Shown here: positions 2,343-30,579 of the stretch, in pieces
Layout of the letters: every line of letters begins with the position of its first letter
Numbering within the stretch: position 1 is the stretch's first letter
IMG/VR virus record: IMGVR_UViG_2537561944_000032
Direction: 5' to 3' (one strand)
Source: a virus
Lineage: Duplodnaviria > Heunggongvirae > Uroviricota > Caudoviricetes
DNA: 39,436 nt
Notes under the pieces: model-generated
Told to the model about the DNA's origin: nothing
Database searches by the model: none
Seen by the model: only the letters and a program-made list of their open reading frames with translations
Position numbers and translations under genes: made by a program

Positions 2343-2603
2343 TTAATTCTGAGGTAAAGGCAAACTCATCTGATTGTTTCCCCTGTGTGAAGCTGGCAGC
2401 TCATGCCACGGGATACCTTCCGAAGAGTGAACGCCGGAGGCGTGTTTTGATGTGAATTTATGGAAAGCTTCCAGTGTTGAGAAGCATACGCCGCATTCCA
2501 GGTTGTTACACTGGTAATACTTTTGCCGCACAGTGTTTGAATCGTTTTCCGGACGACTGGTGCGGATTCGGGCAGATGCGCCACAAAGCGGACAACGGAA
2601 CAT
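2343..2603 (-). CDS. ogr: Ogr/Delta-family zinc-finger late-gene transcription activator
   Basis: N-terminus MFRCPLCGASARIRTSR...YYQCNNLECGVCF has the C4 zinc-finger spacing of P2 Ogr (MFHCPLC...); sits downstream of D on the same strand as in P2. Confidence 0.8.
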   Translation of the reverse strand: MFRCPLCGASARIRTSRPENDSNTVRQKYYQCNNLECGVCFSTLEAFHKFTSKHASGVHSSEGIPWHELPASHRGNNQMSLPLPQN

Positions 2604-2889: not shown

Positions 2890-4029
2890 TCAGCTGCAAA
2901 TTTCGTTGTTGCTGCATGTTATCTCTTCAAGTGCAGCGGCGTTATAATCAACGGAATGATCAACCTGTGATGTAGGTCTGCCAAAAAATTCAACCCCTGA
3001 CATAATCATGTTGCCGATATTCTCTCGCTGTTTATCACTGAGCCTGTCCCACCACTCAGGGGATGAATATGTATTTTCGGCCTTTGTGAAGAAAAAATAC
3101 AGAAGGGTATTGAACATCCTGTTAGCTGGGATCTTAATTAGTGTCCGTATAAAACGTCTGATAATTGTTGAAGTTCTCAGCCAACTGAACACTACATATC
3201 CCTTACCTCCGCAGGAAAAAGCATTGAAACATACTTGTTCCGCCGACACTGTAAGATCGCTCAAATCCTGAATTTTGGTCCCATCGAAATCCCTCTCCGG
3301 TGAAAGAATTGACGAAACTACAATTGGTAAAGGCTCTGCAAAAGTGAAGATAACACTTTCAATTTCTGAAAATTGCCTGCTAAGTAGGATGCGGTCGAGG
3401 CTAGTTTTAAGATTATTTAATTCAATTATTGCTGCATTTAAGCCACTTTGGTGCTGGTCGATTAATTTCTGAATATAATACTGTTCAACTTGTAGCTTTC
3501 CTTTATCGGCATTTTTAGCAAAATCAGAAGATAGCACTCCCCCTTCTTTGGCATAAATTTCTTTAGACAATGAACGAAACATTAAGGCAAAGCACTGCTC
3601 GTCCGTGCCTGTAAATTTTTCGTTCTCTAGGCATGAAAATAAGATTCTGTCATGAACTGCACAAAATCCTGTAAAAGTGGATGCCTGATTGATACCGATC
3701 TTCTCGGGAAGCCATTTTCCGTTGTTTCTCATCAGGCTTGCTAAGTTCATTATCACCCCCATGACGTGATTGCTGGAGTCGGCGATCGCCTTAAGGCTAC
3801 TGCTCTTAGATATCGTATGCGCCTGAACGATGCGTTTATCACAATCTTCGTGCATGGATGCTGGCGCATAACATGCCTTTCTCTGCGAGAGAGACTTTGA
3901 AAATTTCAGTGCCTCGGCTTTGGATACCGGAGTTTCACGATCTCGACCAAGATGGCACTTTTTATACTTAAGTCCTGAATTACACCAGCACTTATCATTT
4001 CTTCCTAATTTCACTTTATTGTTTCCCAC
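2890..4029 (-). CDS. hypothetical protein with N-terminal SEC-C metal-binding motif (379 aa), cargo gene in AT-rich island
   Basis: ORF begins ...GRNDKCWCNSGLKYKKCH (CxC-x8-CH SEC-C motif); remainder has no family I recognise; region is markedly AT-rich relative to flanking phage genes; inserted between D and ogr, which are adjacent in P2. Start codon uncertain (GTG at 4029 or downstream GTG). Confidence 0.6.
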   Translation of the reverse strand: MGNNKVKLGRNDKCWCNSGLKYKKCHLGRDRETPVSKAEALKFSKSLSQRKACYAPASMHEDCDKRIVQAHTISKSSSLKAIADSSNHVMGVIMNLASLMRNNGKWLPEKIGINQASTFTGFCAVHDRILFSCLENEKFTGTDEQCFALMFRSLSKEIYAKEGGVLSSDFAKNADKGKLQVEQYYIQKLIDQHQSGLNAAIIELNNLKTSLDRILLSRQFSEIESVIFTFAEPLPIVVSSILSPERDFDGTKIQDLSDLTVSAEQVCFNAFSCGGKGYVVFSWLRTSTIIRRFIRTLIKIPANRMFNTLLYFFFTKAENTYSSPEWWDRLSDKQRENIGNMIMSGVEFFGRPTSQVDHSVDYNAAALEEITCSNNEICS

Positions 4030-5279
4030 GAAATTAATGTTCTATAACAAAAACACTTATCGAAAATAGGTGTAATTTATCACTCCGGCAGCTAAAAGAT
4101 CATCTGCCACATGCACGATAATAAATCTTCCTTGCGTCATCATCTCCCTCTGTTCTTAAATCAGGTGTTGCCTGTGTGCGGAGGATTCGCGAAGTACAGT
4201 AGCCGAAATGCATGATCTTACCCATCAATGGTGAGCACGCGATAATAAGTGAGTCCCTAATTGACCACTCATGGCAATACAACTTCAACCAGCATTCATG
4301 ACCACTATCCGTGGATTAACTGTTACATAAGCAACACCTGCTCTAGGCACAAAGCGGGCTGCCAGATTGGGTCTGGCACTGTGCTGTGAGTGTGTCAGTT
4401 CTGGTTTGAGTCAATACATCTAATTTGCTCATTCTGTTTCTGCTATCCATTCCGGGATTTTTGCTTCAAGCTCAAGCTGTGTGGTAAAGCCGCTGTTATC
4501 AATGGTGTGCTCGGCTTTTGCAATAATCCAGTCCTGATTATCGATGTCACTTTTGAAGCCTGTCACCGTGCCATGCATTTCGGGATAGAGTTCTGCGCGT
4601 CCACGCGCCAGCGTGATGGAGAATGATGCGGCTCCGCGTTGTAGCTGCTGCCACTTTGCCGCCGCTGCACGTCTTGCTGCCTGCTCGTTCTGATAAGTCT
4701 TGCGTAACACAAACACGTTGCCTTCCGCACCTTCCATATAGTCACCTTCACGGCTGCTGCTTTTCTCCTTTTTCGGTTTGCGGCGTTTCACGCTGACTTT
4801 TTTCTTTTCCCGTAATTAAGATCAAGCCAGTAAGCACGTACCCCCGTATACGCTTCGCGGTCAGCAATGCGGAACTGATGGCGATCGCCACTGCTGCGCG
4901 TGATGGCGAACGATGGCAACGGCTGGCCCTGTGCGTTCACGCCACCGCCTGGCATGATGAATAACAGATTACTGCTTTTTACCGTAGTGATTGCGCCCAG
5001 CATTTCCGCCATGCGCGTAAGGAAGGACATGTCGCTTTCTTCGGTCTGGTCGGCGTGGTCGATTTCAATATCCATCAGCATTTCGCTGATTTGTGGTTTC
5101 AGACCGTACCGATGAGCGATGGCGGATACCACGCGCTCAACGGTCACATCATGCCAGGACACCTCACGTTTAACGTTAAATTCATCCCGAAAATCTGCGC
5201 TTCTGGCTGAAACAGTCAGCCTGTCCGGCGGTCCTTCGTGAGCGATTTCATCAACAATGTAAGTGCCTTTTTCTGTCAG

Positions 5280-5306
5280 TGAGGTAGCCTGAGTTTAACG
5301 GACACT
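5280..5306 (+). repeat. IS left terminal inverted repeat
   Basis: tgaggtagcctgagtttaacggacact; matches reverse complement of 6517-6543 at about 19/27 positions, including the terminal TGAGGT and the CGGACACT block. Confidence 0.7.
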
Positions 5307-5343
5307 CCTTCCTGAAATAGAATGGCATCAGAAGGAGCTAATA

Positions 5344-5646
5344 ATGAGCAGAAAAACCCAACGTTACTCTAAAGAGTTCAAAGCCGAAGCTGTCAGAACG
5401 GTTCTTGAAAATCAACTTTCGATCAGTGAAGGCGCTTCCCGATTATCTCTTCCTGAAGGCACTTTAGGACAATGGGTTACCGCCGCCAGAAAAGGGCTCG
5501 GTACTCCTGGTTCCCGCACGGTGGCTGAACTGGAATCTGAAATTCTGCAACTGCGTAAGGCGTTAAATGAAGCTCGCCTTGAGCGAGATATATTAAAAAA
5601 AGCAACAGCGTATTTTGCACAGGAGTCGCTGAAAAATACGCGTTAA
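5344..5646 (+). CDS. IS3-family transposase OrfA (HTH DNA-binding, 100 aa)
   Basis: MSRKTQRYSKEFKAEAVRTV...LERDILKKATAYFAQES; typical IS3 OrfA with leucine zipper; contains slippery A_AAA_AAA_G at 5595-5602. Confidence 0.85.
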   Translation: MSRKTQRYSKEFKAEAVRTVLENQLSISEGASRLSLPEGTLGQWVTAARKGLGTPGSRTVAELESEILQLRKALNEARLERDILKKATAYFAQESLKNTR

Positions 5647-6500
5647 TCGAACAATGGCGACAACAATTTCCCATTGAAGCGATGTGTCAGGTATTTGGTG
5701 TATCCAGGAGCGGTTATTACAACTGGGTACAGCATGAACCCTCAGACAGAAAACAAAGTGATGAGCGGCTAAAACTGGAGATTAAGGTGGCACATATCCG
5801 CACTCGCGAAACATATGGAACCCGGCGGCTCCAGACGGAGCTGGCAGAGAATGGCATCATCGTTGGTCGTGACCGACTGGCACGTCTTCGTAAGGAGCTA
5901 AGGCTACGCTGTAAGCAGAAACGCAAGTTCAGAGCGACTACGAACTCGAACCACAATCTGCCAGTTGCGCCAAATCTGCTGAACCAGACGTTCGCTCCTA
6001 CAGCACCAAATCAGGTCTGGGTGGCGGACCTGACGTATGTTGCCACACAGGAGGGATGGTTGTACCTCGCTGGCATCAAAGATGTTTATACGTGCGAAAT
6101 TGTCGGCTACGCCATGGGAGAGCGCATGACAAAAGAGCTGACAGGTAAAGCTCTGTTTATGGCGCTCAGGAGCCAGCGCCCACCTGCCGGGCTAATCCAC
6201 CACTCTGATCGAGGTTCACAGTACTGCGCATACGATTACCGGGTCATACAGGAGCAGTTTGGTCTGAAAACATCAATGTCGCGTAAAGGTAACTGTTACG
6301 ACAACGCTCCGATGGAAAGCTTCTGGGGAACGCTGAAAAATGAGAGCCTGAGCCACTATCGTTTTAATAACCGGGATGAAGCCATCTCAGTAATACGGGA
6401 ATACATTGAGATTTTCTACAATCGTCAGCGTCGTCACTCTCGTCTGGGGAATATCTCCCCGGCAGCCTTCAGGGAAAAATATCATCAGATGGCTGCTTAA
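5595..6500 (+). CDS. IS3-family transposase OrfB (DDE integrase domain), expressed as OrfAB fusion by -1 frameshift
   Basis: Frame -1 relative to orfA is open from 5583; reads KKSNSVFCTGVAEKYALIEQWRQQFPIEAMCQVFGVSRSGYY... with DDE catalytic core (HSDRGSQY...NAPMESFWGTLK); start coordinate given at the slip site. Confidence 0.8.
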   Translation, partial: KKSNSVFCTGVAEKYALIEQWRQQFPIEAMCQVFGVSRSGYYNWVQHEPSDRKQSDERLKLEIKVAHIRTRETYGTRRLQTELAENGIIVGRDRLARLRKELRLRCKQKRKFRATTNSNHNLPVAPNLLNQTFAPTAPNQVWVADLTYVATQEGWLYLAGIKDVYTCEIVGYAMGERMTKELTGKALFMALRSQRPPAGLIHHSDRGSQYCAYDYRVIQEQFGLKTSMSRKGNCYDNAPMESFWGTLKNESLSHYRFNNRDEAISVIREYIEIFYNRQRRHSRLGNISPAAFREKYHQMAA

Positions 6501-6516
6501 AAAAAGAACAAATGGT

Positions 6517-6543
6517 AGTGTCCGCTATTGCCAGTACACCTCA
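6517..6543 (+). repeat. IS right terminal inverted repeat
   Basis: agtgtccgctattgccagtacacctca; terminal CA; its last three bases create the TGA stop that truncates the gpD N-terminal fragment. Confidence 0.7.
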
Positions 6544-6952
6544 CAGCGGTTCTCCTTTCCAGCCAATGAGAACCGTCAGGCGCGCGCCCCGTGGCGGTAG
6601 CTGCAACTGACCATCCGCATCATCCAGCGTGATGGTGAGCAGGTCCGCTTCAAATCCCCGGTTGTCGGTCAGTGACAGGCTCATCAGGCGCTCTGCCACG
6701 CCGGACAGTGTTTCCCCCTCCGCGAGAATATCAAAATCCGGCATTTTCACGGGGTCTGTGCTCTGACTGAGCAATTGCATGGTGGTATCGGTCATCTGTT
6801 CCCTCCCTGTGCGGCATGGTCGCATGTGCGTGCATAGGGGGTTACTGCTTTTTGTTGTCGCCGTGGCGGGAGAACGGCGCAGGGGTGAGATTACGCGCGT
6901 GGTGGGTGATGATTGTTGCCGAATCATTTAACGGATACAAGGGGCTGAAGCT

Positions 6953-8137
6953 ATGAGTGAAACTCGTTTTCATGGTGCCCGTGTTACGGAAAGTACCGAC
7001 CTGGTAACAGCGATTAATGATGTTGATTCCAGTGTTATCGGTATCGTGGCAACGGCGGATGATGCGGACGCGGAGCTGTTCCCGCTGAACAAGCCCACAC
7101 TGCTGACCCGCGTCAATGACGTGCTGGGAAAATGCGGGACTACGGGGACGCTTTATCGTGCGCTTAAGGCTATTGCAGACCAGGTGAGCACAAAAGTGAT
7201 CGTCGTTCGCGTGGCTGAACACAAAGAAGAAGGCGGTAAGACGCAGGATCAACTGGTTATCGGTGGTTCTGAATCTGACGGCAGCTATACGGGGATGTAT
7301 GCGCTGCTTGTTGCAGAGCAGGATGAAAGCATCGGATACCGTCCGCGTATTCTGGCCGCGCCGGAGCTGGACACGGAGGCGGTGACAAAATCCCTGTGCG
7401 TGATTGCGGGTAAACTGCGCGCGTTTGTGTATGCCTCATGTCATGACTGTAACACGATGGCTGAGGCAATTACCTACCGCCAGAAATTCAACGAACGTGA
7501 GGTGATGCTCTTATGGCCGGACTTCATCGCCTACAACCCGAAAAGTGGCAAAAACGAAACGTTCCCCGCGCCTGCCTATGCGTGCGGCCTTCGTGCGTAC
7601 ATTGACCATGAGCAGGGCTGGCACAAATCGCTGTCCAACGTTCCTGTTAAAAATGTGCTGGGGATGTCCAGGCATGTTTTCTGGTCGTTGCAGGCCGAAG
7701 ACAGTGATGCCAACAGCCTCAACAACAAAGAAATCACGACCATTATTCGTCGCAACGGGTTCCGCTTCTGGGGCAACCGCACACCGGAAACGAACGCCTA
7801 CATCTTTGAGGTGTATACCCGAACCGCACAGGTGCTGGCTGATTCAATTGCGGAAGCGCAGTTTGAAACCATCGACAGTCCACTGACGCCTGCGAACGTG
7901 AAGGATGTTATCAGTGCCATCAGGGCAAAACTGGATTCGCTGGTTACTGCCGGGAAACTGATTGGCGCGGAGTGCTGGTATGACGTGGTGGATAACAGCA
8001 CCACGGATTTACGTCAGGGGCGTGTGCGTATTCGCTACAAATATACGCCCGTTCCGCCACTGGAAGACATGGAGCTTTACCAGACGTTTACTGATGAATA
8101 CTTTGAACCCGCATTTGCGGTGCTGGGAGGTGCCTGA
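6953..8137 (+). CDS. FI: contractile tail sheath protein (P2 gpFI-like)
   Basis: 394-aa ORF, size and sequence consistent with P2 FI (396 aa); followed directly by FII, E/E', T, U in P2 order. Confidence 0.85.
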   Translation: MSETRFHGARVTESTDLVTAINDVDSSVIGIVATADDADAELFPLNKPTLLTRVNDVLGKCGTTGTLYRALKAIADQVSTKVIVVRVAEHKEEGGKTQDQLVIGGSESDGSYTGMYALLVAEQDESIGYRPRILAAPELDTEAVTKSLCVIAGKLRAFVYASCHDCNTMAEAITYRQKFNEREVMLLWPDFIAYNPKSGKNETFPAPAYACGLRAYIDHEQGWHKSLSNVPVKNVLGMSRHVFWSLQAEDSDANSLNNKEITTIIRRNGFRFWGNRTPETNAYIFEVYTRTAQVLADSIAEAQFETIDSPLTPANVKDVISAIRAKLDSLVTAGKLIGAECWYDVVDNSTTDLRQGRVRIRYKYTPVPPLEDMELYQTFTDEYFEPAFAVLGGA

Positions 8138-8649
8138 TGGCTGTACCAAAACATCTTCGCTTTTTTACGCTGTTTGTGGATGGTGAAAACGAAGTGGGTA
8201 AGGTGACGTCCGTCACTCTGCCTAAGCTGACGCGCAAAACCGACAGCTACCGGGGTGGTGGCATGATGGGTGCGGTAAGTATTGATCTCGGTCTGGACGA
8301 CTCCGCGCTTGATGCGAGCTTTGTCATGGGGGGCGCAGTTCGTGAGCTGTTCCTTAAGTATGGCGGCACGATTGACGGCACGCTGCTGCGTTTTGCGGGT
8401 GAATATTACACCGATGCAGAAAGCGACCTGTATGAAGTCGAAATGCGCGGACGTGTGACGGAAATTGATATGGGGGAAGCCAAACAGGGCGAAGCCACAT
8501 CACACACTTACGCCATTAAAAACACCTACTACAAGCTGAGTGTTAACGATCGCCCGTTGTGGGAGATTGACCTGCTGAACTTCATTTACCGGAAGGACGG
8601 CAAGGACATTGTGCCCGATCGCATCCGTTCCGCGCTCGGGCTTGGCTGA
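8137..8649 (+). CDS. FII: tail tube protein (P2 gpFII-like)
   Basis: 170-aa ORF immediately after FI (ATGA overlap), size as P2 FII (172 aa). Confidence 0.85.
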   Translation: MAVPKHLRFFTLFVDGENEVGKVTSVTLPKLTRKTDSYRGGGMMGAVSIDLGLDDSALDASFVMGGAVRELFLKYGGTIDGTLLRFAGEYYTDAESDLYEVEMRGRVTEIDMGEAKQGEATSHTYAIKNTYYKLSVNDRPLWEIDLLNFIYRKDGKDIVPDRIRSALGLG

Positions 8650-8703
8650 TAAGTAATATGCAGGCGGCGCAGTGCGTCGCCTCTGACTGAAAGGAGTTTC
8701 CTG

Positions 8704-9069
8704 ATGAAAGAGACGAAAAACATCGATACCGAAAACACGGTAGTTGCTGACACTGTGAAAGAAACCAGTGAGCGTGGTGTAAAACTTACCCAACCAATTG
8801 AGCGAGGCGGCGAAAAAATCACGTATGTGGAGATCACCGGGGCTATTGAGCAGGCTGGATCTCTGCGAGATTTGTCGCTGTCTGATGTGCTGAATCTGAA
8901 AGCGGAATCCATGTTTACGCTGCTGTCACGCGTGACATCACCGCGACTGGATGAAGTGACGATCAAAAAAATGGCATCCCGTGACTTTATTCAGTTATGT
9001 GTGGTTGCCGTAAATTTTTTGAGCGGTGCGGACTCTGGCGGGAAGAACGAACAGGCGACGGAAGCCTGA
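8704..9069 (+). CDS. E: tail assembly chaperone gpE; gpE+E' produced by -1 programmed frameshift (8704..9021 joined to -1 frame ending 9233)
   Basis: Small acidic ORF between tube and tape-measure genes; slippery T_TTT_TTG at 9015-9021; -1 frame ORF 8997..9233 encodes conserved E' extension (FEHIEDFVADIAVIFNWSPAEIF). Confidence 0.8.
   Translation: MKETKNIDTENTVVADTVKETSERGVKLTQPIERGGEKITYVEITGAIEQAGSLRDLSLSDVLNLKAESMFTLLSRVTSPRLDEVTIKKMASRDFIQLCVVAVNFLSGADSGGKNEQATEA
9015..9021 (+). other. programmed -1 ribosomal frameshift slippery heptamer TTTTTTG (gpE to gpE+E')
   Basis: T6G in the 0-frame context aat ttt ttg; same heptamer and position as the P2 E/E' frameshift site. Confidence 0.75.
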
Positions 9070-9210
9070 TCACGGTTGTGTGCTTTGAGCACATAGAAGA
9101 CTTTGTGGCAGATATTGCCGTTATTTTTAACTGGTCGCCCGCCGAAATCTTCATGATGACGCCCGGCGAAGTGGTTAGCTGGCGTGAGCGGGCGGCACTT
9201 CGCAGCGGGA

Positions 9211-12027
9211 ATGCAGACAATGAAGACTCTTGATATCCGGGTCGCTTTCAGCGCCGTTGACAGGCTGACCCGGCCTGCCGAAAACGCCCGCCGCCTGATG
9301 GGGCAGTTTGGTGACTCCATCCAGCGAACGCAGGGGGCGATTAAAAATCTCGAGCGTCAGGCTCGTTCATTTGAGCGCGCCCGCGACGCTGTCAGTAAAG
9401 CGGATGCGGGTATCGTGAAAGCACGACGCCAGCTTAACGCCCTTAATCAGTTACAACGCACGGGTACAGTGCTCAGCGAAAAACAACAAAAGCTGATGCA
9501 GCAGTTAAGCACCCGGCTTGAACGCCTGAATGAATCGCGCACACGGGAAATTCAGAAAATGCGGGAGCTTGGCGGAGAGCTGAAACGCCACGGCATTTCC
9601 CTGACAGGCAGCGATAACACCATCCAGCAGGCCATCAGACGCACCGAACAGTACAACAACCAGCTTGAACGCGAACGGCAGGCGCTTGCGCGTGTAACGC
9701 GGGCGCGTAAGTGGTATTCGCGCGCGCAGGAAACCGCGGGAAAACTGAAAACAGGTGGTGCGCTGGCAATTGGTGCGGCAGCGGCGGGCGGCTATGCTGC
9801 CGGGCGTTTTTTGCAGCCCGCGATCGGGTTCGGCAAAGAGATGTCCCGCGTTCAGGCGCTGACGCGAATCGACCAGAACAGCCCGCAGTTTAAGGCGCTG
9901 CGTGAGCAGGCGTTAAAACTTGGCTCTGAAACGCAGTTCACCGCAGGCGATGCCGCCAGTGGGCAGGCATTTCTTGCAATGGCAGGCTTCACACCGCAGG
10001 CCATTCAGGCTGCGCTTCCCGGAGTGCTGAGCATGGCAACGGCTGGCGGTATGGATCTCGGCGAGACGGCGGATATTGGCTCAAATATCCTGACGCAGTT
10101 CGGCCTTTCTGCTGACCAGATGGACCGGGTCGGTGACACACTCACCGCAGCGTTTACCCGTACCAACACTGACCTTCGCGCACTGGGCGAAACCATGAAA
10201 TATGCAGGTCCGGTGGCGGGTAAGCTGGGAATATCGCTGGAGCAGGCCGCAGCGATGGCTGGTGTGCTGGCGAATATGGGCATCAGAGGGAGTGATGCCG
10301 GGACGGCAATGCGTGCCAGCCTGGCTCGTCTGGCATCACCGCCAAAGGCGGCGGCAGAAGCTCTGAAAGAGCTGGGCGTGTCCGTCTCGGATGCCGGGGG
10401 TAAAATGCGCCCGATGGAGGATGTGCTGGCCGACCTTTATAAAGCCACCCGCAAATACGGGGAAGTTGACCGGGTATCGTTCTTTAAGGACATTGCCGGA
10501 GAAGAGGCTTTCACATCGTTTATGGCGCTCGTTGATGCAGTGGGTGACGGTTCCTTACCCAAACTGAGAAAAGAACTTGAAGGCGCGCGCGGTGAGGCTG
10601 AACGCACAGCAAAGGTTATGGCCAACAACCTTGACGGCGATCTGAAATCACTCGGCAGTGCATGGGAAGGGTTGCGCATCCGCATTGCAGATCTGATTGA
10701 CGGTCCGCTGCGTTCTGTCACGCAGTGGCTCACGCGGGTGGTATCAAGGGTGACGGCGCTGGCGCAGGCCCATCCGGCACTGACGCGCCAGCTACTGATA
10801 GCAGGCGGTGCGTTGCTGGCAATGACTGCAACGGTTGGCTCGTTGTCGCTGGCTATTGGTGTGCTTGCTGGTCCGCTGGCAAAACTGCGTCTTGGTTTTT
10901 CTCTCCTGACCGGATCAATGAATGCTGTCAGGGTCCTGCCAGCACTATGGGGAATGGTGACGGGTTCCGTTTCTTTACTGGGAGGCGCTATCGGGGCGCT
11001 GTTCAGTCCGGTTGGTCTTATCGTGGCTGCGCTTGCCGGAGCTGCCGTCCTTATCTGGAAATACTGGGATCCCATCAGGGCATTTTTTGCCGGGGTGTTC
11101 AGCGGGATTATGGAAAGGCTGAACCCGTTGCGTGAAACCTTTGAACGGTTTGGCCCTGTTTTTGACGCAATCGGAAGCGGGATCAGCCAGGTGTTTAACT
11201 GGTTTAAATCGCTGCTGTCACCGATGGAGTCCAGCAAGGAAACGTTGGATAAATGTACCAGTGCTGGCGAGATATTCGGTAACGTTCTTGGCGGTGCGTT
11301 ACAACTTGTTCTGACACCTGCAAAAATGCTACTGGATACGCTGGCGTGGATACTTGAAAAACTTGGCGTCCTTCCGGATGAAGCGGAAAGGGCGCGCAAG
11401 AAAATCGAAGACGCACAGCGTGCGGCCATTCTTCAGGATAAGGTTGCCTTACTTCAGGGGGACCTGGCGAAAATCAATCCGCCGAAGCCTGTGGAAAATG
11501 GCAATGGCACCGGAGGTGATAAACCCAAAGACAACAAACCGCTCACAGACAGCAATACCGGGACGCTACGCAGACTCAGCAAAATTGCTGATAACACAGG
11601 TAAGCTGGTTGATGAGACGAAAAAACGCATTGGCCCCGGCGATATTGTCTTTAAGAACCTGCCCCGCGCACTTGCTGTTCGTGGGGAGTGGCAGGAGCGG
11701 AAGATTGCGCAGGTCAGTAAGCCTGCCCCCGCAATTAATATCACACCCGTAGTCCCGGCTCCGCTGCCTCCGGCGCTGGTCCCTGTTGTTGCGGCCAGCT
11801 CCCGCCCGGTGGCGGAGGCCATACGATCGCCAGTGGCATCAGTTCCTGCAGCTTCCCGTAATCGGGAGCCTGCTGTCTCCAGATTTGGCGGTGAAATTCA
11901 TGTTCATCTGCATAACGTTGTTACGCAGAATCCCCGCGAACTGGCGAAACTGGTCGGTGAAATGGTCAGGGCAGAAATGGAACGGCGCGCCCGTGCCGGG
12001 CGTGGCAGTTTTTACGATAAAGATTGA
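9211..12027 (+). CDS. T: tail tape measure protein (P2 gpT-like)
   Basis: About 940-aa protein with extended coiled-coil N-terminal half and Gly/Ala-rich hydrophobic segments; position between E' and U. Start ambiguous (ATG 9211 or 9220; ORF opens at 9184). Confidence 0.85.
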   Translation: MQTMKTLDIRVAFSAVDRLTRPAENARRLMGQFGDSIQRTQGAIKNLERQARSFERARDAVSKADAGIVKARRQLNALNQLQRTGTVLSEKQQKLMQQLSTRLERLNESRTREIQKMRELGGELKRHGISLTGSDNTIQQAIRRTEQYNNQLERERQALARVTRARKWYSRAQETAGKLKTGGALAIGAAAAGGYAAGRFLQPAIGFGKEMSRVQALTRIDQNSPQFKALREQALKLGSETQFTAGDAASGQAFLAMAGFTPQAIQAALPGVLSMATAGGMDLGETADIGSNILTQFGLSADQMDRVGDTLTAAFTRTNTDLRALGETMKYAGPVAGKLGISLEQAAAMAGVLANMGIRGSDAGTAMRASLARLASPPKAAAEALKELGVSVSDAGGKMRPMEDVLADLYKATRKYGEVDRVSFFKDIAGEEAFTSFMALVDAVGDGSLPKLRKELEGARGEAERTAKVMANNLDGDLKSLGSAWEGLRIRIADLIDGPLRSVTQWLTRVVSRVTALAQAHPALTRQLLIAGGALLAMTATVGSLSLAIGVLAGPLAKLRLGFSLLTGSMNAVRVLPALWGMVTGSVSLLGGAIGALFSPVGLIVAALAGAAVLIWKYWDPIRAFFAGVFSGIMERLNPLRETFERFGPVFDAIGSGISQVFNWFKSLLSPMESSKETLDKCTSAGEIFGNVLGGALQLVLTPAKMLLDTLAWILEKLGVLPDEAERARKKIEDAQRAAILQDKVALLQGDLAKINPPKPVENGNGTGGDKPKDNKPLTDSNTGTLRRLSKIADNTGKLVDETKKRIGPGDIVFKNLPRALAVRGEWQERKIAQVSKPAPAINITPVVPAPLPPALVPVVAASSRPVAEAIRSPVASVPAASRNREPAVSRFGGEIHVHLHNVVTQNPRELAKLVGEMVRAEMERRARAGRGSFYDKD

Positions 12028-12033
12028 GGAGTC

Positions 12034-12528
12034 ATGGCCATGATGATGATCTATGGCATGTTTGTTTTTGAGCTGCGCACGCTGCCGCATCAGCAGTTAC
12101 AGCAAAATAAAAGCTGGCGGCATGTGAAAAATGAACGCGTTAACCGTTCAGCAAGCTGGCAGTATATCGGTGCAGGTGATGATCGCATCGTTCTTTCTGG
12201 TGTGCTTTATCCTGAAATTACAGGTGGCGAAGTGTCGCTGTCTCTGCTGACCACGCAGGCGTATACAGGACGGCCCTGGCCTCTGATTGATGGCGTCGGG
12301 CAGATTTACGGCATGTATGTCCTGACCGAAACGAATACGACCCGCTCCGAGTTTGATCGCTACGGTAAGTCGAAAAAGATAGAATTTTCACTGACTCTTG
12401 AACGCTGTGATGAGGATTTGCGGGAGCGCCTGCAATCCTCATCGTTCAGCGATATGTTGTCCGGCTTCAAAGATAAGGTGACATCATCCCTTAATAGCGC
12501 GACCAGCTCAGTTAAGGGGCTGCTCTGA
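12034..12528 (+). CDS. U: tail protein gpU-like
   Basis: 164-aa ORF (MAMMMIYGMFVFELRTLPHQ...) resembling P2 gpU (159 aa); directly after tape measure. Confidence 0.8.
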   Translation: MAMMMIYGMFVFELRTLPHQQLQQNKSWRHVKNERVNRSASWQYIGAGDDRIVLSGVLYPEITGGEVSLSLLTTQAYTGRPWPLIDGVGQIYGMYVLTETNTTRSEFDRYGKSKKIEFSLTLERCDEDLRERLQSSSFSDMLSGFKDKVTSSLNSATSSVKGLL

Positions 12529-12684
12529 TTTAACGTATGTCGCCAATTTCCTGATGAAGGTGACTGGCGACTTGCTGTTGTATGTCCTTCTCAGAAAATT
12601 GTTTTTGAATAACAAACAACAGGATTTTATAATCTCTTAACCTTATAATATGTGTGGTCTGAAATAATAATTAAGGAGATTATC

Positions 12685-13257
12685 GTGCTGTCTTACTTAA
12701 TGGCAATTCACTTTGCTTTATTTGGGGACTCTACTAATTTAAAAAACTTCTGGAAATATGAAGTAATTCGGCGGAAACGTATGGATATCTGGAGGCTTTT
12801 AAGAGAGAAAAAACAGCGTAACCGGAATTTCCTTTTCTGGTGGCGGTTGGCTAACGAAATGTATATTAATGGTAATAAATTACATAAGAAAGCAGCCAAA
12901 AAGTTAAACAGTAAAATAATTAACAAATTTGGTTGTGAAATTGGATTGGGCGCAAATATTGGAAAAGGGTTAACAATTCCCCATCATGCTGGAATTGTTG
13001 TTCATTTTGCTGTTGATGCTGGTGAAAATCTGGTGTTACGACAGAATACTACCATTGGACAGATAGATGGTGACATGCCTGGTTCAAGAGTAAAAATTGG
13101 TAGTAACGTTGATATCGGAGCTAATTGTTGCATCATTGGATTATCACGTAAAATTGGGGATAATGTAAAAATAGGTGCAATGTCTTTTATAAATAAAGAT
13201 ATACCATCGAACTGCACATATATAACTAAAAAGAGCGGTGTTGTATTGTATAAATAG
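12685..13257 (+). CDS. hexapeptide-repeat (left-handed beta-helix) acetyltransferase, CysE/LacA/WcaB-like; cargo gene
   Basis: Repeated [LIV]-G-x-x-x-x-I hexapeptide units (IGKGLTIPHHAGIVV...VKIGSNVDIGANCCIIG...KIGDNVKIGAMSF); GTG start at 12685 with AAGGAG RBS (ATG at 12700 alternative); region 12570-13260 is strongly AT-rich; followed by hairpin terminator. Confidence 0.75.
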   Translation: MLSYLMAIHFALFGDSTNLKNFWKYEVIRRKRMDIWRLLREKKQRNRNFLFWWRLANEMYINGNKLHKKAAKKLNSKIINKFGCEIGLGANIGKGLTIPHHAGIVVHFAVDAGENLVLRQNTTIGQIDGDMPGSRVKIGSNVDIGANCCIIGLSRKIGDNVKIGAMSFINKDIPSNCTYITKKSGVVLYK

Positions 13258-13265
13258 AGTACATA

Positions 13266-13300
13266 AAGCCATCTATATTTCAATCGATGGCTTTTTCTCT
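13266..13300 (+). terminator. rho-independent terminator after acetyltransferase gene
   Basis: gccatc...gatggc stem followed by TTTTTCTCTTTATT. Confidence 0.55.
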
Positions 13301-13879
13301 TTATTGTGGGGCGACTGGCCACTCAACATCCGCTGCTACCGCTGTATTAACACGATTCAACAATACCCGGTATGTCTTCCATGCAGCCAGTAACGATGCC
13401 TCTTCCTCCGTTGCAATATCCAAATCTACGGCATCCTGAAGTGGCGCAATATGCTCGCTGGCTACCTGCATCAGGCTGTTTTTTGTTTCTTCCGCCTCCC
13501 TTATCCGAAACAGTTTTTCTGCTTCTGCATCTTTCACCCAGGATGTGCCGTTCCACTTCTGATACTCTCCATACGGCGACAACCAGGTAACATTTTCCGG
13601 TAATGGACCGAGTTCAGAAATAAATAACGAGTCCCCTGATGCCACGTCATAAACCGTTTTACCCCGATGGTCTTCAACGAGATGCCACGATGCCTCATCA
13701 CTGTTGAAAACGGCCACGAAGCCAGCCGGAATATCTGGCGGGGCAATATCGGTACTGTTTGCAGGCAGACCTGTATGAGGTGGAATGTATGCATCACCTT
13801 CACCAATAAACTCATTGGTTCCGGTCAGTAGATTATAAATTTTTATGGTCCGTGAGTGTTCACTCATTCTGAATGTCAT
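13301..13879 (-). CDS. G: tail fiber assembly protein (P2 gpG-like)
   Basis: 192-aa ORF immediately downstream of the tail fiber gene on the same strand; typical size and position of gpG/Tfa. Confidence 0.75.
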
Positions 13880-16011
13880 TATGCAAGCCTCACAATATAG
13901 TTAAATGCGATGTTTTTTACGGTGTTTTCTTCGTTACCCGTAGCGTTAACGGTGATGGTGTGTCCGTGGGGACCAATAATGACAGAATGGGCATGAGCAC
14001 CAATGCCGATAGTGTGGTTATGGGCACCGATATATACATTGTGAGCATGCTCGCCTGCGCTCGACGTGGTACCAGTACCTAACGCAGCGTTATAACCGGC
14101 TGATACACCATTCCCCGCGCCAGTGTGACCAACAGGTATATTGTGTGAATGATTTCCAGCGCTATTCGTAGTTTTTGTGCCGTAATCAAATGAACTGGTC
14201 GTTTTAGTACCGTAATCAAACGACGATGTGGTTTTCGTCCCCAAATCCGTACTGGATGCGCTGGCGCTGTGGGTGTGCGATTTAATGCCGTCCTGTTCCT
14301 GAGACAATACGGCACGACCACTGCCGGGCTTGCCCTTAATCGTCCAGCCACGCATATCAGGAATAACGCCTGACGGATAAGCGACTGCAAGTTTCGGGTA
14401 TGCAGATTTGTCAAAAGTCTGCCCCTGCATCAGGGCATAACCAGACGGAACGGTATCTGATGGCCACGGAATCGGTGCACCGACTGGATAAAACTCTTCA
14501 GGAGGATGAGCCGAGGTGTAAAGCTGCGCCCACGGCGACCAGTTTGCGTCGGGCGTATCCCGTCGTGAACGAATAAATGCCGGAGCATGAGCACCGCTTA
14601 TACCACTCCAGCCGATGAGTAATTCGCCTTCGCCAACGGCTGTCATCCCTTTCAGGTGAATGATATTTCCATACGTTGTTGGATATCCGTTGTTATACGC
14701 CTCGTATAACTCCAGACCTGTGGCCCCCTGCATATTATCTGTCAGGGCGGTCAGCCGACCTTTTGAAGCCAGATTAACTGACGATACTGCTGTCCCATCT
14801 GACGGTAACGCCCCGATCTCTGATGCTGTTGGCTTATTCCTGGAGTTATAGTCCCTTCGCCAGCCAGGAGCATAAGCATCACCATGATTAATATAAGTAA
14901 ATTGAGCATTAGGGATGCCTTCACCGCTGGATGTACTCGGTGTGGTAATGCGTATGGTCATTGCGCCGCGGGTGCCAATAACTTCCACAACAGCACCTGC
15001 AAGACAAATACTTCCGCAACCTGTATCTGTAATGACCTTATTATTTGCATAAGCCCATGAGCCTTTGCACATCCAGTAAGGATGGTTAAATGCCCCCTGA
15101 CTCTCTAGCCAAAAAATCAACTGCGCAGTTGTCCATGCTTCACTATCTCCACCAATATTCAGCTCTGCACTATATGCACGGCAGGCACCGATATTTTTCG
15201 TAAAGGTGTCTTTATCAGAGATATCCTCACCATTCTTAGCTTTCTGCAGACGTTTTTCAGCATTGTCATAGGCAGCTTTTACTGCATTTGATGTTGCCGC
15301 CAGCGTTTCAGATGTACTGTTGGTTGCACTACTAAGCTGGACAAGGCCTTTTCGCGCTGTTGTGGCATCCTGCGCTGTATATTTTCCGTTAGCAAGATCA
15401 TACGCGACCTTAACCGCTTTCGGCGTTGCAGCCAGCGTTTCAGAATCGCTGTTAGTGGCGCTACTGAGTTGAACAAAGCCTTTTGCGGTCAGCGAGGCAT
15501 CCGGGTGACATCGTGACTGTTCATGCTCTTTCAGTTCGTTATCCACGTAATCCACTGTGGCCATCACCATGGTGTTATCCACGGTAAGCGCCACAGTGGC
15601 AGTGCTGGATACGGTCAGAATGGTGCGAAATGTTTGTGCACGTCCGGACCCTTCGGCAACGGCTGGCTTGTAACTTTCGGCAGTATTGCCCACCGCGATT
15701 AAATCGCCGTGCTCATCAAACACACCAATTTCCCGGATCCAGAATCCGCCCGTTTCTGGAGGAATAACCAGCTCCGCAATAATGCGGTTCTGATGTGTTG
15801 CGTCCAGGATGACGCGATTAACAGTGTGTCGCCACACCTCATGCACCAGACGGGTCTGCTTACTGTCTGGTGTGGGCAACGCGCCGCCACCGTCGCCCAC
15901 GGCCATATGAGTCAGGCGGACAGGCTTACCATCTGGCGCGGCTGCCTGAGCTAATTTTTTGGCACCTGTATCGGTGATAACGGTTTTAAATTTTCGTGTT
16001 GTGGTACTCAT
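13879..16011 (-). CDS. H: tail fiber protein (P2 gpH-like) with divergent His-rich C-terminal receptor-binding tip
   Basis: N-terminal two-thirds match P2 gpH as I recall it, including the duplicated [23 protein letters not shown] segment; C-terminus carries HxH repeats ([33 protein letters not shown]). Confidence 0.9.
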
Positions 16012-16013
16012 GC

Positions 16014-16544
16014 TTAATCGTCCGGATAAATGGTAATAACTTCACCGTCATGAGTTGCCGCCGCTGCAAAAATATCCCCCGGAATTTCCTGAATGATATT
16101 CAGCCCTGTCATGTGGCGGCTGACCGGACGGGCATCAGCAATCAACCGCTCCATTTCCAGATACATTTCCTCCGTCACGCCACTGTCCAGTGTGCCGACT
16201 TCAACGGTAAATGTTCCCGGTTCTCCGCCGAACTCCCACCACTCAGACACGCGAATGAGGTATCCCAGCGGCTCAATGGCCCTGCGCAGTGCGCTGATGG
16301 TCCCTTTGTGTCGGTGTATCAGCCATGCATCACGAATCACCTGTCGTTTTGTCTCTTCCGGCCAGTTGCGATCCCAGCGGTCAACGGAAAATGCCCAGGC
16401 GAGATAAGGCAGCAGGTGCACCGGGCAGGTGTCCGGCGACCACAGCGTGTTGAGGTCTACCGGGATGTCTGTAATGCGCGTTCCGACAGCTTCGGCACAA
16501 CGCATGAAACTGCTGGCTGATGGTGGTAACAGTGAATTACTCAT
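16014..16544 (-). CDS. I: baseplate assembly protein gpI-like
   Basis: Position between J and H; about 176 aa from Met at 16544 (MSNSLLPP...), P2 gpI size. Confidence 0.8.
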
Positions 16545-17433
16545 TGCGCCCACCTTCGCTGATGGTGAACGACTCACAGCGCGCCGCCTGTATGTCGCTG
16601 ATGGCCATATTCTGTGTGGGTTCGATTATCTCCACGCGTTGCACACCGTGCACATGCAGTGCGGCAGCAATGGCGGACAACGCCACGTCCTGACCGATAA
16701 GCCCCTGCTCAGCCAGCCACTTCCTGAACGACGATTCAGCCGCCGCCAGAATAGGTTCGGATTCCGGGCCGGGGTAAAAGTACAGTTTTGCATTCAGCCG
16801 CCATGTCACGATTCTGGCGCTCTGTACCGTCAGGCGGTCGGCCACCGGGCGGGTATCCTCTGCATTCAGAACGGCGCGAACGGTATTAAGCAACGCCTCC
16901 GTTGCTGTGCCGTCGCCTTCAGTGGACAGGATGGAAACCGTCACATTTGCCGGAGACGGACTGATAGCCCGCGCATCACGCACCAGACCGCTGGCGCTGC
17001 GGGCAAAATACTCGTATGCACCTGACGGGCCAGCAACACTCAGGCCATCGTACGCCCGCTGCGCCCGCAGTCTCAGCGAGGTGTCACTTTCCATCACTGC
17101 GTCGGTGGTATCCGTTGCCGGAGTGATGGTCAGGCGCTTTGTGTTCATATTGCCCGCGAGGTTGTCCAGGTCTGTCCCGGCGCTGTGGCTTAACATGCAG
17201 GCGCGTGCCCCCTCATTGACCCGCTGGCGTAACAGCATTTCACGAAACGCTGTTGTCTGGGCGATAACGTTCAGGGGTTCCGATTCCAGCTCCAGCGCGG
17301 CGGAGACGGCTTCACGCTGTTCGGCAGGATAGGACGCAATCATCATGGCCTTTGTGTCAGCCAGAATTGCCTCAAAGTCAGGCTCCGCGATGATGGCGGG
17401 TTCCGGTAACTGGGAAAGGTCAACGGCAGGCAT
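16537..17433 (-). CDS. J: baseplate protein gpJ-like
   Basis: 298-aa ORF between W and I; size matches P2 gpJ (302 aa). Confidence 0.85.
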   Translation of the reverse strand: MPAVDLSQLPEPAIIAEPDFEAILADTKAMMIASYPAEQREAVSAALELESEPLNVIAQTTAFREMLLRQRVNEGARACMLSHSAGTDLDNLAGNMNTKRLTITPATDTTDAVMESDTSLRLRAQRAYDGLSVAGPSGAYEYFARSASGLVRDARAISPSPANVTVSILSTEGDGTATEALLNTVRAVLNAEDTRPVADRLTVQSARIVTWRLNAKLYFYPGPESEPILAAAESSFRKWLAEQGLIGQDVALSAIAAALHVHGVQRVEIIEPTQNMAISDIQAARCESFTISEGGRNE

Positions 17434-17436
17434 GAT

Positions 17437-17787
17437 TTACTCCCTCAGCGTGATGGTTAATTCAACATTCTGCATGGTCTGCATGACAGTGCCCGACAGC
17501 GTCACCCCGGCGCGGCCTCCTGCCTTCCAGACAACGTCGATGGCGTCCAGGGCAATGCGGGGTTCCCATCGTGTCAGCGCAATCACGGCAGCACTCATGC
17601 ATTGCAGACGAGTGGTGTTATTCATGGGTTCGTCAATTAAATCGGGCACAAGGCTGCCATATTCCCGTCGCATAACCCGGCTTGCCAGCGGGGTGATCAG
17701 GATGTCCCTGACTGACTGTTTCAGATGCTCCATATCGTTCAGGTTTCCCGTTCCGTCCGGGTTCATTCCTGTGTAGCGGGTTGTCAC
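17437..17787 (-). CDS. W: baseplate wedge protein gpW-like (gp25/lysozyme-like fold family)
   Basis: 116-aa ORF between V and J; P2 gpW is 115 aa. Confidence 0.85.
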   Translation of the reverse strand: MTTRYTGMNPDGTGNLNDMEHLKQSVRDILITPLASRVMRREYGSLVPDLIDEPMNNTTRLQCMSAAVIALTRWEPRIALDAIDVVWKAGGRAGVTLSGTVMQTMQNVELTITLRE

Positions 17788-18365
17788 TGCGGGCCTCCTG
17801 TCGAATCGCTGCCACCTTTAACGCCACCATGTTTATGCGTATGCACTGTGATGCCGTTTGAGGTGAAATTGCCGCCGCTGTGCGTGATATTGCCGCTCAT
17901 CTTTCCCCCTTTTGTGACGTCAAGCGTCGCCGTTCTCAGAAGGTCTGTGCATTCCACGACGGGCGTGTCCAGTGTCACACTGACGGATGCCTGCAGGGTG
18001 GCCGTTTTCATGCCGCTGGCGCTCAGTGCGCCTGCGTCCGCGTCGTAGCGGAACACCGCGCCATCCGGCGCGCTGACCACGATTTCTTTCAGGCTTTTGC
18101 CGGGGGCCGGATTGGCATCACTCCACAGGCTGCCAATTATCATGGCGGTTTCCGGGTTGCCGCCAATGCAGGCAATTACCACCTGTTCGCCGGGTGATGG
18201 CGGCAGCCACACATTGAAGGCTCCCGCGCGCGTGGTGTTCCAGCGCAACCAGCCTGTTTCCAGTTCGCCGCTGCGAACGCGCACGCACCAGGACTTCTCA
18301 TCAACTTCAGAGATGATCCCGGTGCGGATGATGTTGCTCAGCAGTCGCATGAGTTCTGCGCTCAC
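17784..18365 (-). CDS. V: baseplate central spike protein gpV-like
   Basis: 193-aa ORF upstream of W with Gly-rich C-terminus; P2 gene order S-V-W-J-I-H-G. Confidence 0.8.
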   Translation of the reverse strand: MSAELMRLLSNIIRTGIISEVDEKSWCVRVRSGELETGWLRWNTTRAGAFNVWLPPSPGEQVVIACIGGNPETAMIIGSLWSDANPAPGKSLKEIVVSAPDGAVFRYDADAGALSASGMKTATLQASVSVTLDTPVVECTDLLRTATLDVTKGGKMSGNITHSGGNFTSNGITVHTHKHGGVKGGSDSTGGPQ

Positions 18366-19006
18366 CGTACAGCCTCCGCAATCCGGCCCAGCACCGTGTT
18401 ATAAATCAGGCGTTCATCTGCCTGACTGATGCCCAACAGCTCACGTACCGGGTAATCGGTGAAAATGCCCGGCGCAACCTGATCGCGCTCACCGAACTGA
18501 TGAACGCGGGCAATACGTGCGGCCACGCCGCTGTAACCCACCGTCACACCGGAAGCATCTGCACGGGCTTTCAGGTAGCGGGCGGTGCGCAGTTTTACGA
18601 ACATGGGGACGCGCTTTGTGCTGTCCTGGTTGATGCGCCGGGTGCGTATTTCCAGAAAGCGGTCGATGTCATCCCGGTAAAACGTGCGGATATTGTTTTT
18701 ATCCTCATCCCACCCGGTAATGGTTCGCCCGTATTTCCCCGTGTCGTGATGCCAGTTTTTCAGCGTGCGTGCTTCGTTATTCCAGATAAAGCGAATGCGC
18801 TCCTGTATCCGGGTTACGCGGCGTCTGCGTGGTGTCCACGCGGTCCCGTCCGGCGCTTTCTGTGACCGGATACGCGCCTGCTGGGCGCGGCGTAAATCCT
18901 GTGCCAGCTTTCTGGCGATGTTATTGATGGCCTGCTGATTCAGGCTGTCGCGGATAGCCTCAAAGGTTTCATCCACGCGGGTGAATGCCTTATCCATCGC
19001 TTTCAC
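18362..19006 (-). CDS. S: tail completion / virion morphogenesis protein gpS-like
   Basis: Basic 214-aa ORF between R and V in conserved P2 order. Confidence 0.7.
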   Translation of the reverse strand: MKAMDKAFTRVDETFEAIRDSLNQQAINNIARKLAQDLRRAQQARIRSQKAPDGTAWTPRRRRVTRIQERIRFIWNNEARTLKNWHHDTGKYGRTITGWDEDKNNIRTFYRDDIDRFLEIRTRRINQDSTKRVPMFVKLRTARYLKARADASGVTVGYSGVAARIARVHQFGERDQVAPGIFTDYPVRELLGISQADERLIYNTVLGRIAEAVR

Positions 19007-19457: not shown

Positions 19458-19480
19458 CTGTTTTGCTCTCCTGTTCATCC

Positions 19481-22613: not shown

Positions 22614-22615
22614 TG

Positions 22616-24212: not shown

Positions 24213-24257
24213 TTTTTCTCTCCGTTACAGGCGGGCATGATGCCCGCCGTGAGTTGA

Positions 24258-30575: not shown

Positions 30576-30579
30576 TGGT

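Follow-up and report, generated by a model that had tools for sequence, protein, structure and literature searches.

Phages P2 (Peduovirus) and 186 (Eganvirus) carry the tail genes FI to U and D as a single operon on the same strand as V to G, with U overlapping D. In the 39,436-nt stretch of viral DNA analyzed here (IMG/VR record IMGVR_UViG_2537561944_000032, hereafter the window), the late gene set and an Ogr-type activator are those of P2 and 186, but FI to U has the reverse orientation, leaving D by itself on the opposite strand. Is this a rearrangement of one genome, or the order of the lineage to which the genome belongs?

Gene layout of the tail region

The window encodes a P2-like (Peduoviridae) contractile tail module, with homologues of FI, FII, E/E', T, U, D, V, W, J, I, H, and G all present. 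The ORF list, tblastn against P88, P2, and 186, and Pfam place the FI-FII-E-E'-T-U block (6953-12528) on the plus strand, and the ORF list, tblastn, and Pfam place D, ogr, R, S, V, W, J, I, H, and G on the minus strand. Pfam matches in the window include sheath, tube, tape measure, GpU, GPD, Baseplate_J, gpV, GpR, and Ogr_Delta, and the RefSeq annotation of the near-identical prophage of Escherichia coli O26:H11 11368 agrees with the gene identities and strands.

2343-2603, minus strand: ogr, Ogr/Delta-type zinc-finger late activator (Pfam Ogr_Delta, E=5e-14)
4429-6796, minus strand: D, baseplate hub / late control D (pieces 97-99% identical to P88 D)
6797-6952 (156 bp), no strand: divergent D/FI spacer, putative bidirectional late promoter region (from sequence)
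6953-8137, plus strand: FI, tail sheath (Pfam Phage_sheath_1, Gp18_domIII_N, sheath_1C)
8137-8649, plus strand: FII, tail tube (Pfam Phage_tube, E=7.5e-47)
8704-9069, plus strand: E, member of the tail assembly chaperone pair (tblastn to P88 E and P2 E)
9078-9233, plus strand: E', partner of E in that pair (tblastn; RefSeq annotation)
9220-12027, plus strand: T, tape measure protein (Pfam PhageMin_Tail, E=3.6e-58)
12040-12528, plus strand: U, tail protein, last gene of the flipped block (Pfam Phage_P2_GpU)
13301-18365, minus strand: G, H, I, J, W, and V, baseplate and tail-fibre genes (tblastn to P88/P2/186; Pfam; RefSeq)
13301-13879, minus strand: G (tblastn, RefSeq)
13879-16011, minus strand: H (tblastn, RefSeq)

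By tblastn, the FI protein shares 98% identity with that of P88 and 45-47% with the sheaths of P2 and 186, and the G-V region matches the Pfam families Caudo_TAP, Baseplate_J, and Phage_base_V/spike. E has no Pfam match at E<=1e-5, though tblastn pairs it with the E proteins of P88 and P2; at the E and E' positions of O26 11368, RefSeq names a "tail protein" and a "GpE family phage tail protein", and the ogr counterpart there is an "ogr/Delta-like zinc finger family protein".

The first-pass annotation of this DNA had put FI-U on the plus strand and the other tail genes on the minus strand, with one breakpoint in the D/FI spacer and a second between U and the acetyltransferase island, where the cargo slot lies, all of which our analyses confirm; the spacer measures 156 bp (6797-6952) and not the 157 bp it gave. 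Its wording that all other late genes are on the minus strand is right for D, ogr, and R-S-V-W-J-I-H-G but not for P and Q (26325-29120), which are also on the plus strand and whose P2 counterparts likewise lie opposite to O. The V-G genes and the FI-U block converge from opposite strands, and D is transcribed away from FI. This is not the P2/186-type late layout, in which FI..U-D is co-directional with V..G, but the P88-like one, with relative strands V..G (+), U-T-E'-E-FII-FI (-), and D (+) and a divergent FI-D spacer of about 125-180 bp.

D itself is broken. Alignment to O26:H11 11368, whose intact 366-aa D matches Pfam Phage_GPD, reveals a 1-nt frameshift near 4790 and a 1264-bp insertion.

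5280-6543, plus strand: IS3-family insertion sequence of IS600 size (1264 bp), inside D (alignment to O26 11368)

The element has ORFs at 5344-5646 and 5682-6500 and is flanked by a 3-bp target duplication (5277-5279 and 6544-6546). Copies 99-100% identical occur in Stx phages, and related E. coli matches include a feature named "IS3-like element IS600 family transposase". This copy of the prophage is degraded.

Distribution of the flipped order

The first-pass annotation had called for a comparison with P2, 186, and their relatives, and this comparison sets the two reference phages, which differ from the window, apart from P88, which does not. The window and P88 align as a single collinear series at 95.8% identity over aligned bases, 6544-12534 included, and P88 carries U-T-E'-E-FII-FI opposite in strand to V..G and D. 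About 72% of P88 aligns with the window; 71.7% aligned at 95.8% identity gives a borderline product of 68.7%, for a window that possibly is not the whole prophage and that contains insertions. Membership in the genus Xuanwuvirus calls for roughly at least 70% whole-genome nucleotide similarity to P88. The window is a P88-like (Xuanwuvirus-like, Peduoviridae) E. coli prophage.

P88 and its relatives PhiSM, P884B11, PhiR44_2, and Chuche have the whole gene order of the window, flipped FI-U included, with a tail block 97% identical to the window's at the nucleotide level and a D/FI spacer of 157 bp. The differences lie elsewhere: P88 has an invertible tail-fibre segment and a DNA invertase, neither of which is in the window, and in place of both the window has an H with another C-terminus, a G unlike that of P88, and a serine acetyltransferase. 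A YecA-family gene and a NanS-like esterase are additional cargo in the window, the integrase is nearer to that of 186, and D, unlike that of P88, is disrupted by the insertion sequence and the frameshift. Two phages with the flipped order, P88 and PhiSM, are viable and plaque-forming (PMC5285337, PMC6456863).

The order extends beyond the P88 group to SEN4 (Senquatrovirus), 3LV2017 (Reginaelenavirus), and phiT5282H (Novemvirus), which share the flipped FI-U and divergent D with the window, although identity to P88 D reaches only 62-76% for their D proteins, and their cargo and tail fibres differ. Among 80 loci retrieved with D (a single genome per species across Enterobacterales, taken as the best matches to P88 D and hence a non-random set), 51 are flipped (L004-L052, L054, and L083). 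All loci with a D at least 61% identical to P88 D, which are these 51 from about 20 Enterobacterales genera, are flipped; among the remaining loci, best D matches (to either P88 or P2) run at 49-79% identity and most loci are collinear, with two (L081 and L082) unclassifiable for absence of the genes required. Once reference records are added, the count is 56 flipped to 31 collinear loci. In complete E. coli genomes, the intact D|FI junction is present in 1358 of 5426 (about 25%) and the intact U|cargo|G junction in 495 of the same 5426.

Could the order nonetheless reflect a recent inversion peculiar to this genome, or an assembly error, as the first-pass annotation had allowed? It does depart from the textbook P2 and 186 maps, and the decay of the prophage that carries it is plain from the insertion sequence and the frameshift that interrupt D. 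However, the same arrangement is found in P88 and O26:H11 11368, the window is collinear with P88 on both junction sides, and each junction recurs in independent complete genomes, hundreds of them for one and over a thousand for the other. Because the flipped order is common to P88, three further genera, 51 of the 80 loci, and 1358 genomes, it is neither a misassembly nor a genome-specific event; the P88 order, the retrieved loci, and the E. coli junction counts refute that explanation, and we give it a negligible probability. "In-place inversion" thus remains apt relative to the P2/186 order but not as an event of this genome, and the counter-case that the same annotation had named, a conserved arrangement of a P2-like sublineage, proved to be the true one. 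The flipped FI-U block is the fixed, functional, and ordinary order of a large P2-related lineage made up of P88-like phages and sister genera.

For genome scanning, these data serve as a calibration: departure from the P2/186 map is no anomaly in the P88-like lineage, whose prophages are found in about 25% of complete E. coli genomes. We found no published description of the flipped order in the literature searched; a word search of the P88, PhiSM, SEN4/5, and Serratia PP4 papers returned no wording on inversion or orientation, and the xenorhabdicin paper mentions inversions for tail-fibre segments only.

Probable origin of the flipped order

As P2, 186, Fels-2, and the distant phiCTX are all collinear, with FI..U-D on the strand of V..G, the flipped state is derived; Fels-2 had been considered as a candidate flipped relative and was set aside as collinear. 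Flipped loci are monophyletic when D, FI, FII, and U trees are built by neighbour joining with phiCTX as the root, whereas J and I trees fail to separate the two arrangements. Given these mixed J and I trees, and the mosaicism near the block, a single origin is strongly suggested, though unproven for every locus. The trees and gene orders point strongly to a single ancient inversion of the late promoter pF together with FI..U, and the P88-like prophage very probably inherited its flipped pF-FI-FII-E-E'-T-U segment from that one event, as the normal order of its sublineage.

The mosaicism of P2-like phages, and J and I trees that ignore the split between flipped and collinear loci, would also be expected if recombination with a phage of another type, whether illegitimate or homologous, had inserted a foreign sheath-tube-tape-measure cassette in reverse. 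We consider such a module replacement improbable: the same tree split is seen for FI, FII, and U inside the block and for D outside it, and divergence from P2 within the block (FI 45-47%, FII 44-46%, U 43-46%, T 33% identity) is comparable to that of V (45-46%), W (44-46%), J (52-55%), and D (about 50%). The block also retains a P2-type activator site at a P2-type distance from FI.

A programmed, reversible switch, in which a phage DNA invertase flips FI-U as invertases flip the tail-fibre segments of Mu, P1, and P88, is a further conceivable source of the arrangement, and a Gin/Cin-type invertase gene does lie 42-99 bp from the 3' end of U in some clade members and 100-127 bp upstream of FI in collinear relatives such as Fels-2. 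Such a gene is present in only 5 of 54 flipped loci, though, and has no match in the window. The first-pass annotation had seen no inverted repeats at the junctions by eye and had proposed a search for junction repeats or a recombinase site; our inverted-repeat search over 4300-13400 bears out its impression, with only scattered short, chance-like pairs, none joining the two junctions as crossover sites would, and no pair linking 6797-6952 with 12529-12651. All clade members share a single orientation that tracks phylogeny, which argues against both orientations in one lysogen, and a switch of this kind is hardly credible. An invertase-mediated origin of the ancient inversion is a separate idea. 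Invertase genes lie on the fibre side of the F block, at its edge, in both arrangements (5 of 54 flipped loci, 3 of 23 collinear ones), which is suggestive, but the idea is speculation only.

Under the single ancient inversion that we favor, the inverted segment would have been bordered on one side by the 5' end of D and on the other by the variable cargo slot that lies downstream of the tail-fibre genes. FI-U would have kept its own Ogr-dependent promoter, carried along with the block, and D, severed from the F operon, would now diverge from the same 156-bp spacer, most likely driven in the reverse direction by the same dyad-type activator site, as at the P2 P/O promoters. The V-G and FI-U operons would have come to converge on the cargo slot. 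A P2-like precedent for rearranged tail operons that kept late promoters of the TGT-N12-ACA type is Stenotrophomonas phage Smp131 (PMC3931495); its rearrangement is a gene exchange between the V and F operons, and its FI-U is not inverted, unlike in the window.

Putative late promoters at the D/FI spacer

P2 late promoters have a common TGT-N12-ACA motif and are Ogr-dependent (PMC3931495). As the mark of an Ogr/B/delta-dependent promoter we used a phage-encoded activator of the Ogr family plus a TGT-N12-ACA dyad whose centre is about 55 nt upstream of where the transcript begins. The D/FI spacer is conserved throughout the flipped clade, and a promoter scan detected no sigma-70 consensus promoter in it. 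Exact matches to TTGTTGT-N12-AGAAC number two in the window and two in P88, in each case one in the D/FI spacer and one in the O/P spacer.

6852-6875, plus strand: candidate Ogr-type activator site TTGTTGT-N12-AGAAC (core TGT-N12-AGA at 6856-6873)
26239-26262, plus strand: second TTGTTGT-N12-AGAAC copy, in the divergent O/P spacer (26204-26324)

From the centre of the D/FI site it is 88 nt to the FI ATG and 69 nt to the D ATG; in P2 the pF site is similarly about 80 nt from the FI ATG. The O/P copy corresponds to the activator site shared by P2 pO and pP, annotated in the P2 record as one site for both; the window resembles P2 and 186 both in a dyad about 80 nt upstream of FI and in putative divergent P/O promoters on one site. 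Across the clade, 53 of 57 spacers contain one TGT-N12-A[CG]A each, with a variable interior and a distance to the FI start of 74-88 nt. The Xuanwuvirus dyad reads TGT-N12-AGA rather than ACA, and TGT-N12-ACA occurs in the sister genera, the spacers of SEN4, 3LV2017, and phiT5282H having either this canonical form or the AGA variant. A -10-like GATGAT starts 43.5 nt from the dyad centre, and TAATCT in the O/P spacer is equally spaced; in the direction of D, the -10-like hexamer GACCAT (6821-6816) is weak and would leave a leader of only about 13 nt.

A divergent spacer with a dyad at a P2-like distance, and a motif identical to that between O and P, leads us to infer from sequence that the D/FI spacer is a bidirectional Ogr-dependent promoter giving D a separate transcript. 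As a candidate third late-promoter site upstream of R, S, and V, we saw no convincing TGT-N12-A[CG]A in a suitable intergenic position. Perfect TGT-N12-ACA palindromes at 1856, 4038, and 29377 were rejected as promoter sites, these three being no more than chance, which we estimate at about 10 per strand.

It is evenly balanced, in our judgment, whether dyad symmetry is what let the inversion succeed: placing D beside the upstream side of pF would have created an instant second bidirectional late promoter like pP/pO, making D (with ogr, by read-through) a fifth late transcription unit in a Peduoviridae sublineage. The literature searched contained no paper describing or testing such a dyad-enabled D promoter. 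The significance for P2 biology is modest, in that the F operon would have been split by the ancient inversion, so that D now has a divergent, probably Ogr-dependent promoter to itself; that promoter, if real, would leave the understanding of P88-like phages unchanged.

The cargo slot between U and G

Homology to P88 at the U side ends at 12534 by blastn, and the sequence beyond belongs to the cargo side of the junction.

12539-12571, plus strand: stable hairpin just 3' of U, candidate FI-U terminator (RNA fold -22.3 kcal/mol, z=-3.8), on the cargo side
12605-13294, plus strand: serine O-acetyltransferase moron in the variable cargo slot (promoter scan, Pfam, RefSeq, folds)

The moron, with a GC content of 0.38, comprises a promoter, TTGAAT-17-TATAAT at 12605-12633 in the promoter scan, a coding sequence at 12685-13257, whose Pfam Hexapep match (E=3e-05) is under the Pfam gathering score and whose RefSeq name agrees, and a two-way terminator hairpin at 13265-13294 (fold z=-4.8 and -4.7). 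The inversion would have left this moron slot flanked by two late operons that converge on it.

Strand layout and relationship to P88

All of the window beyond about 1.9 kb is a P2-related prophage, and the genes that bear on its tail region are as follows.

Host DNA and genes of the tail region
1-549, host DNA, end of pgsA
701-1003, host DNA, tRNA-Gly/Cys/Leu
2343-2603, minus, ogr
4429-6796, minus, D
6953-8137, plus, FI
8137-8649, plus, FII
8704-9233, plus, E/E'
9220-12027, plus, T
12040-12528, plus, U
minus strand, G, H, I, J, W, V, S and R

Gene identities from Pfam, tblastn to P88, P2 and 186, and RefSeq annotation of the near-identical O26 prophage bear out the first-pass annotation in placing FI through U on the strand opposite to D and V through G, unlike P2 and 186. 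Its broader wording, that the block opposes all other late genes, holds for ogr, D and G through R but not for P and Q, which are also on the plus strand. In P2, 186, Fels-2 and Pseudomonas phage phiCTX, FI through U and D instead lie downstream of V through G on a shared strand.

Megablast of 5000-14500 matched many E. coli chromosomes, including that of O26:H11 strain 11368, at 100% identity, and P88 and its relatives at 94.5-97.2%. Alignment of the window to the whole P88 genome gave a single series of blocks (1892-2643, 4419-5279, 6544-12534, 15259-19415, 21411-29570, 30212-34135 and 35166-36411; 95.8% identity over aligned bases) whose relative orientation is constant throughout, and thus the prophage is not rearranged with respect to P88. 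It agrees with the P88 layout in every test and departs from the P2/186 operon layout. The prophage belongs to the P88-like lineage, though by nucleotide similarity (68.7% to P88) its placement in the genus Xuanwuvirus is borderline.

Distribution of the flipped order

The P88 record itself has V-W-J-I-H-G on one strand, U-T-E'-E-FII-FI on the opposite strand and D again on the first, an order shared by SEN4 (Senquatrovirus), 3LV2017 (Reginaelenavirus) and phiT5282H (Novemvirus). We positioned V, J, I, FI, FII, T, U and D by tblastn in 80 loci encoding D relatives, drawn from a one-genome-per-species collection. Every locus with a D at or above 61% identity to that of P88, 51 in total, has the block flipped; the hosts include Salmonella, Serratia, Edwardsiella, Erwinia, Pantoea, Enterobacter, Kosakonia, Klebsiella, Citrobacter, Pectobacterium, Brenneria, Symbiopectobacterium, Providencia, Morganella, Xenorhabdus, Photorhabdus, Yersinia, Hafnia and Rouxiella. 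The other loci, with D nearer the P2/186 type, are collinear wherever classifiable; two (L081 and L082), having no FI or U matches, were left out of this classing. Of 5426 complete E. coli genomes, 1358 cover at least 80% of the D/FI junction (6560-7400), and 495 do so for the U/acetyltransferase/G junction.

The first-pass annotation had allowed that this orientation might be conserved in a distinct P2-like sublineage, and P88, SEN4, 3LV2017, phiT5282H and the 51 loci demonstrate exactly that; its concern about misassembly is excluded, as the flipped order is lineage-wide. P88 and PhiSM, a related phage, form plaques (PMC5285337, PMC6456863). The observation is real, though its biology is ordinary, and the order is already known from named viable phages and a quarter of complete E. 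coli genomes. Comment on it was not found in the literature searched, yet it is plain in annotated reference genomes.

Probable origin of the flipped order

Burkholderia P2-like phages have D, U and T adjacent on one strand in the gene tables of PMC3091744; as the collinear order occurs in these and in the distant phiCTX, the flipped order is derived. In neighbor-joining trees rooted on phiCTX, the flipped loci form a single clade for D, FI, FII and U but not for J and I, which adjoin recombination-prone fiber genes. An imported foreign cassette is one conceivable source of the block. However, the split given by D, which is not part of the block, is the same as that given by the block genes FI, FII and U, and block proteins have diverged from P2 about as much as neighboring proteins have; both points favor a single in-place inversion as the likelier origin. 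The inverted interval would comprise pF (the P2 late promoter of the FI operon) plus FI through U, with one end at the D start and the fiber-side end at the variable cargo slot between U and G. P88 homology ends 6 nt past the U stop codon. In loci with an invertase gene, that gene lies at the fiber-side edge of the block in flipped and collinear arrangements alike, and an invertase may have mediated the inversion.

An inverted-repeat search confirmed that no such repeats join the two junctions, as had been judged by eye. We rejected the idea that the block is an invertible segment because it has no flanking repeats, the window has no invertase and a single orientation is found across the clade.

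A candidate late promoter between D and FI

The D/FI spacer is 156 bp long (6797-6952) rather than the 157 bp first annotated. P2 late promoters share TGT-N12-ACA and require the activator Ogr (PMC3931495), and in the P2 record the divergent promoters pO and pP share a single annotated activator site.

Candidate late-promoter elements
6852-6875, TTGTTGT-N12-AGAAC, D/FI spacer
26239-26262, TTGTTGT-N12-AGAAC, O/P spacer
FI direction, -10-like GATGAT beginning 43.5 nt from site center, predicted start ~6920
P direction, -10-like TAATCT beginning 43.5 nt from site center, predicted start ~26307
D direction, weaker GACCAT (6821-6816) at the mirror position to site center, predicted start ~6809

These two copies are the only exact matches to TTGTTGT-N12-AGAAC in the window and in P88. 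Since the pattern was derived from these spacers, those of the clade serve as an independent test: 53 of 57 clade D/FI spacers contain exactly one TGT-N12-A[CG]A, centered 74-88 nt upstream of the FI ATG, with a freely varying 12-nt interior. The P2 pF site lies ~80 nt from the FI ATG, and this matching distance indicates that pF moved with the block. Smp131, another P2-like phage, has rearranged tail operons and retains TGT-N12-ACA promoters (PMC3931495).

By hexamer spacings read off the spacer sequences, the predicted FI and P starts each fall ~55 nt from the site center. The D ATG is 69 nt from it, and a transcript from the predicted start toward D would have a very short leader. A promoter scan found no sigma-70 consensus promoter in the D/FI spacer and, because D has no co-directional upstream gene, its transcript must begin in or near this spacer. 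The simplest model for D is a bidirectional Ogr-dependent promoter, toward which we lean slightly; such a promoter would be the one mildly new element here.

An alternating CG run (CGCGCGCG or ACGCGCG) adjoins the activator site in each of the window's two divergent spacers, at 6893-6902 and 26285-26292, just upstream of the -10-like hexamers. Most clade spacers (D/FI spacers of loci L006-L054) have such a run on their D side as well, and P2 pP carries the similar CGCGGGGCGCG.

Decay of this copy

This prophage copy is decaying. Compared with O26:H11 11368, D carries a 1264-bp IS3-family element (IS600-size; 5280-6543) with a 3-bp target duplication, and its frame is also shifted by a 1-nt indel near ~4790; the 11368 prophage lacks both and is otherwise 99.96-99.98% identical. 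Tails could probably not be built by this copy. Gene P, for the large terminase, is broken into two overlapping ORFs (26325-26960 and 26951-28075), each 98-99% identical to part of a single P88 gene, which points to a probable frameshift.

Cargo and side genes

Cargo and side features
2012-2152, minus, Hok/Gef-family toxin gene (RefSeq annotation in O26 11368)
2890-4029, minus, 379-aa protein, N-terminal SEC-C motif (RefSeq "YecA family protein")
12539-12571, stable hairpin 3' of U (z=-3.8)
12605-13294, serine O-acetyltransferase moron (GC 0.38)
19481-21358, minus, 625-aa protein with DUF1737, SASA (sialate O-acetylesterase) domain and DUF6645
30264-30710, minus, partition-protein homolog (P88 annotation)
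30580-31539, minus, homolog of P88 "plasmid segregation protein ParM"
36982-38429, low-GC genes adjoining the integrase: HTH protein, 216-aa protein without family match, DUF2511 protein
38435-39436, plus, integrase

A near-consensus sigma-70 promoter (TTGAAT-17-TATAAT) belongs to the acetyltransferase moron itself, and a two-way terminator hairpin sits before G; together with the hairpin after U, these features indicate that two late operons converge on an insulated slot. In this slot P88 instead carries an invertible tail-fiber segment and a DNA invertase. The cassette of H C-terminus, tfa and acetyltransferase recurs at 95-96% identity in the unrelated large E. coli phages Ro157c2YLVW and JL22.

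The integration/immunity end has been swapped: the integrase is 56% identical to that of 186, 39% to P88 and 38% to P2, and P88 has no match to the three genes beside it. P88 also lacks the 379-aa protein, low-GC cargo between ogr and D, and any counterpart of the 625-aa protein, the alignment being broken from 19415 to 21411. The latter is encoded between the lysis genes and R, and its domains resemble those of NanS-type esterases of EHEC prophages. ParM and partition genes are unusual in an integrating P2-like phage. The Hok/Gef toxin gene is situated between ogr and the prophage end nearest the tRNAs, at a place matched in P88 by a "MokW-like host killing" gene.
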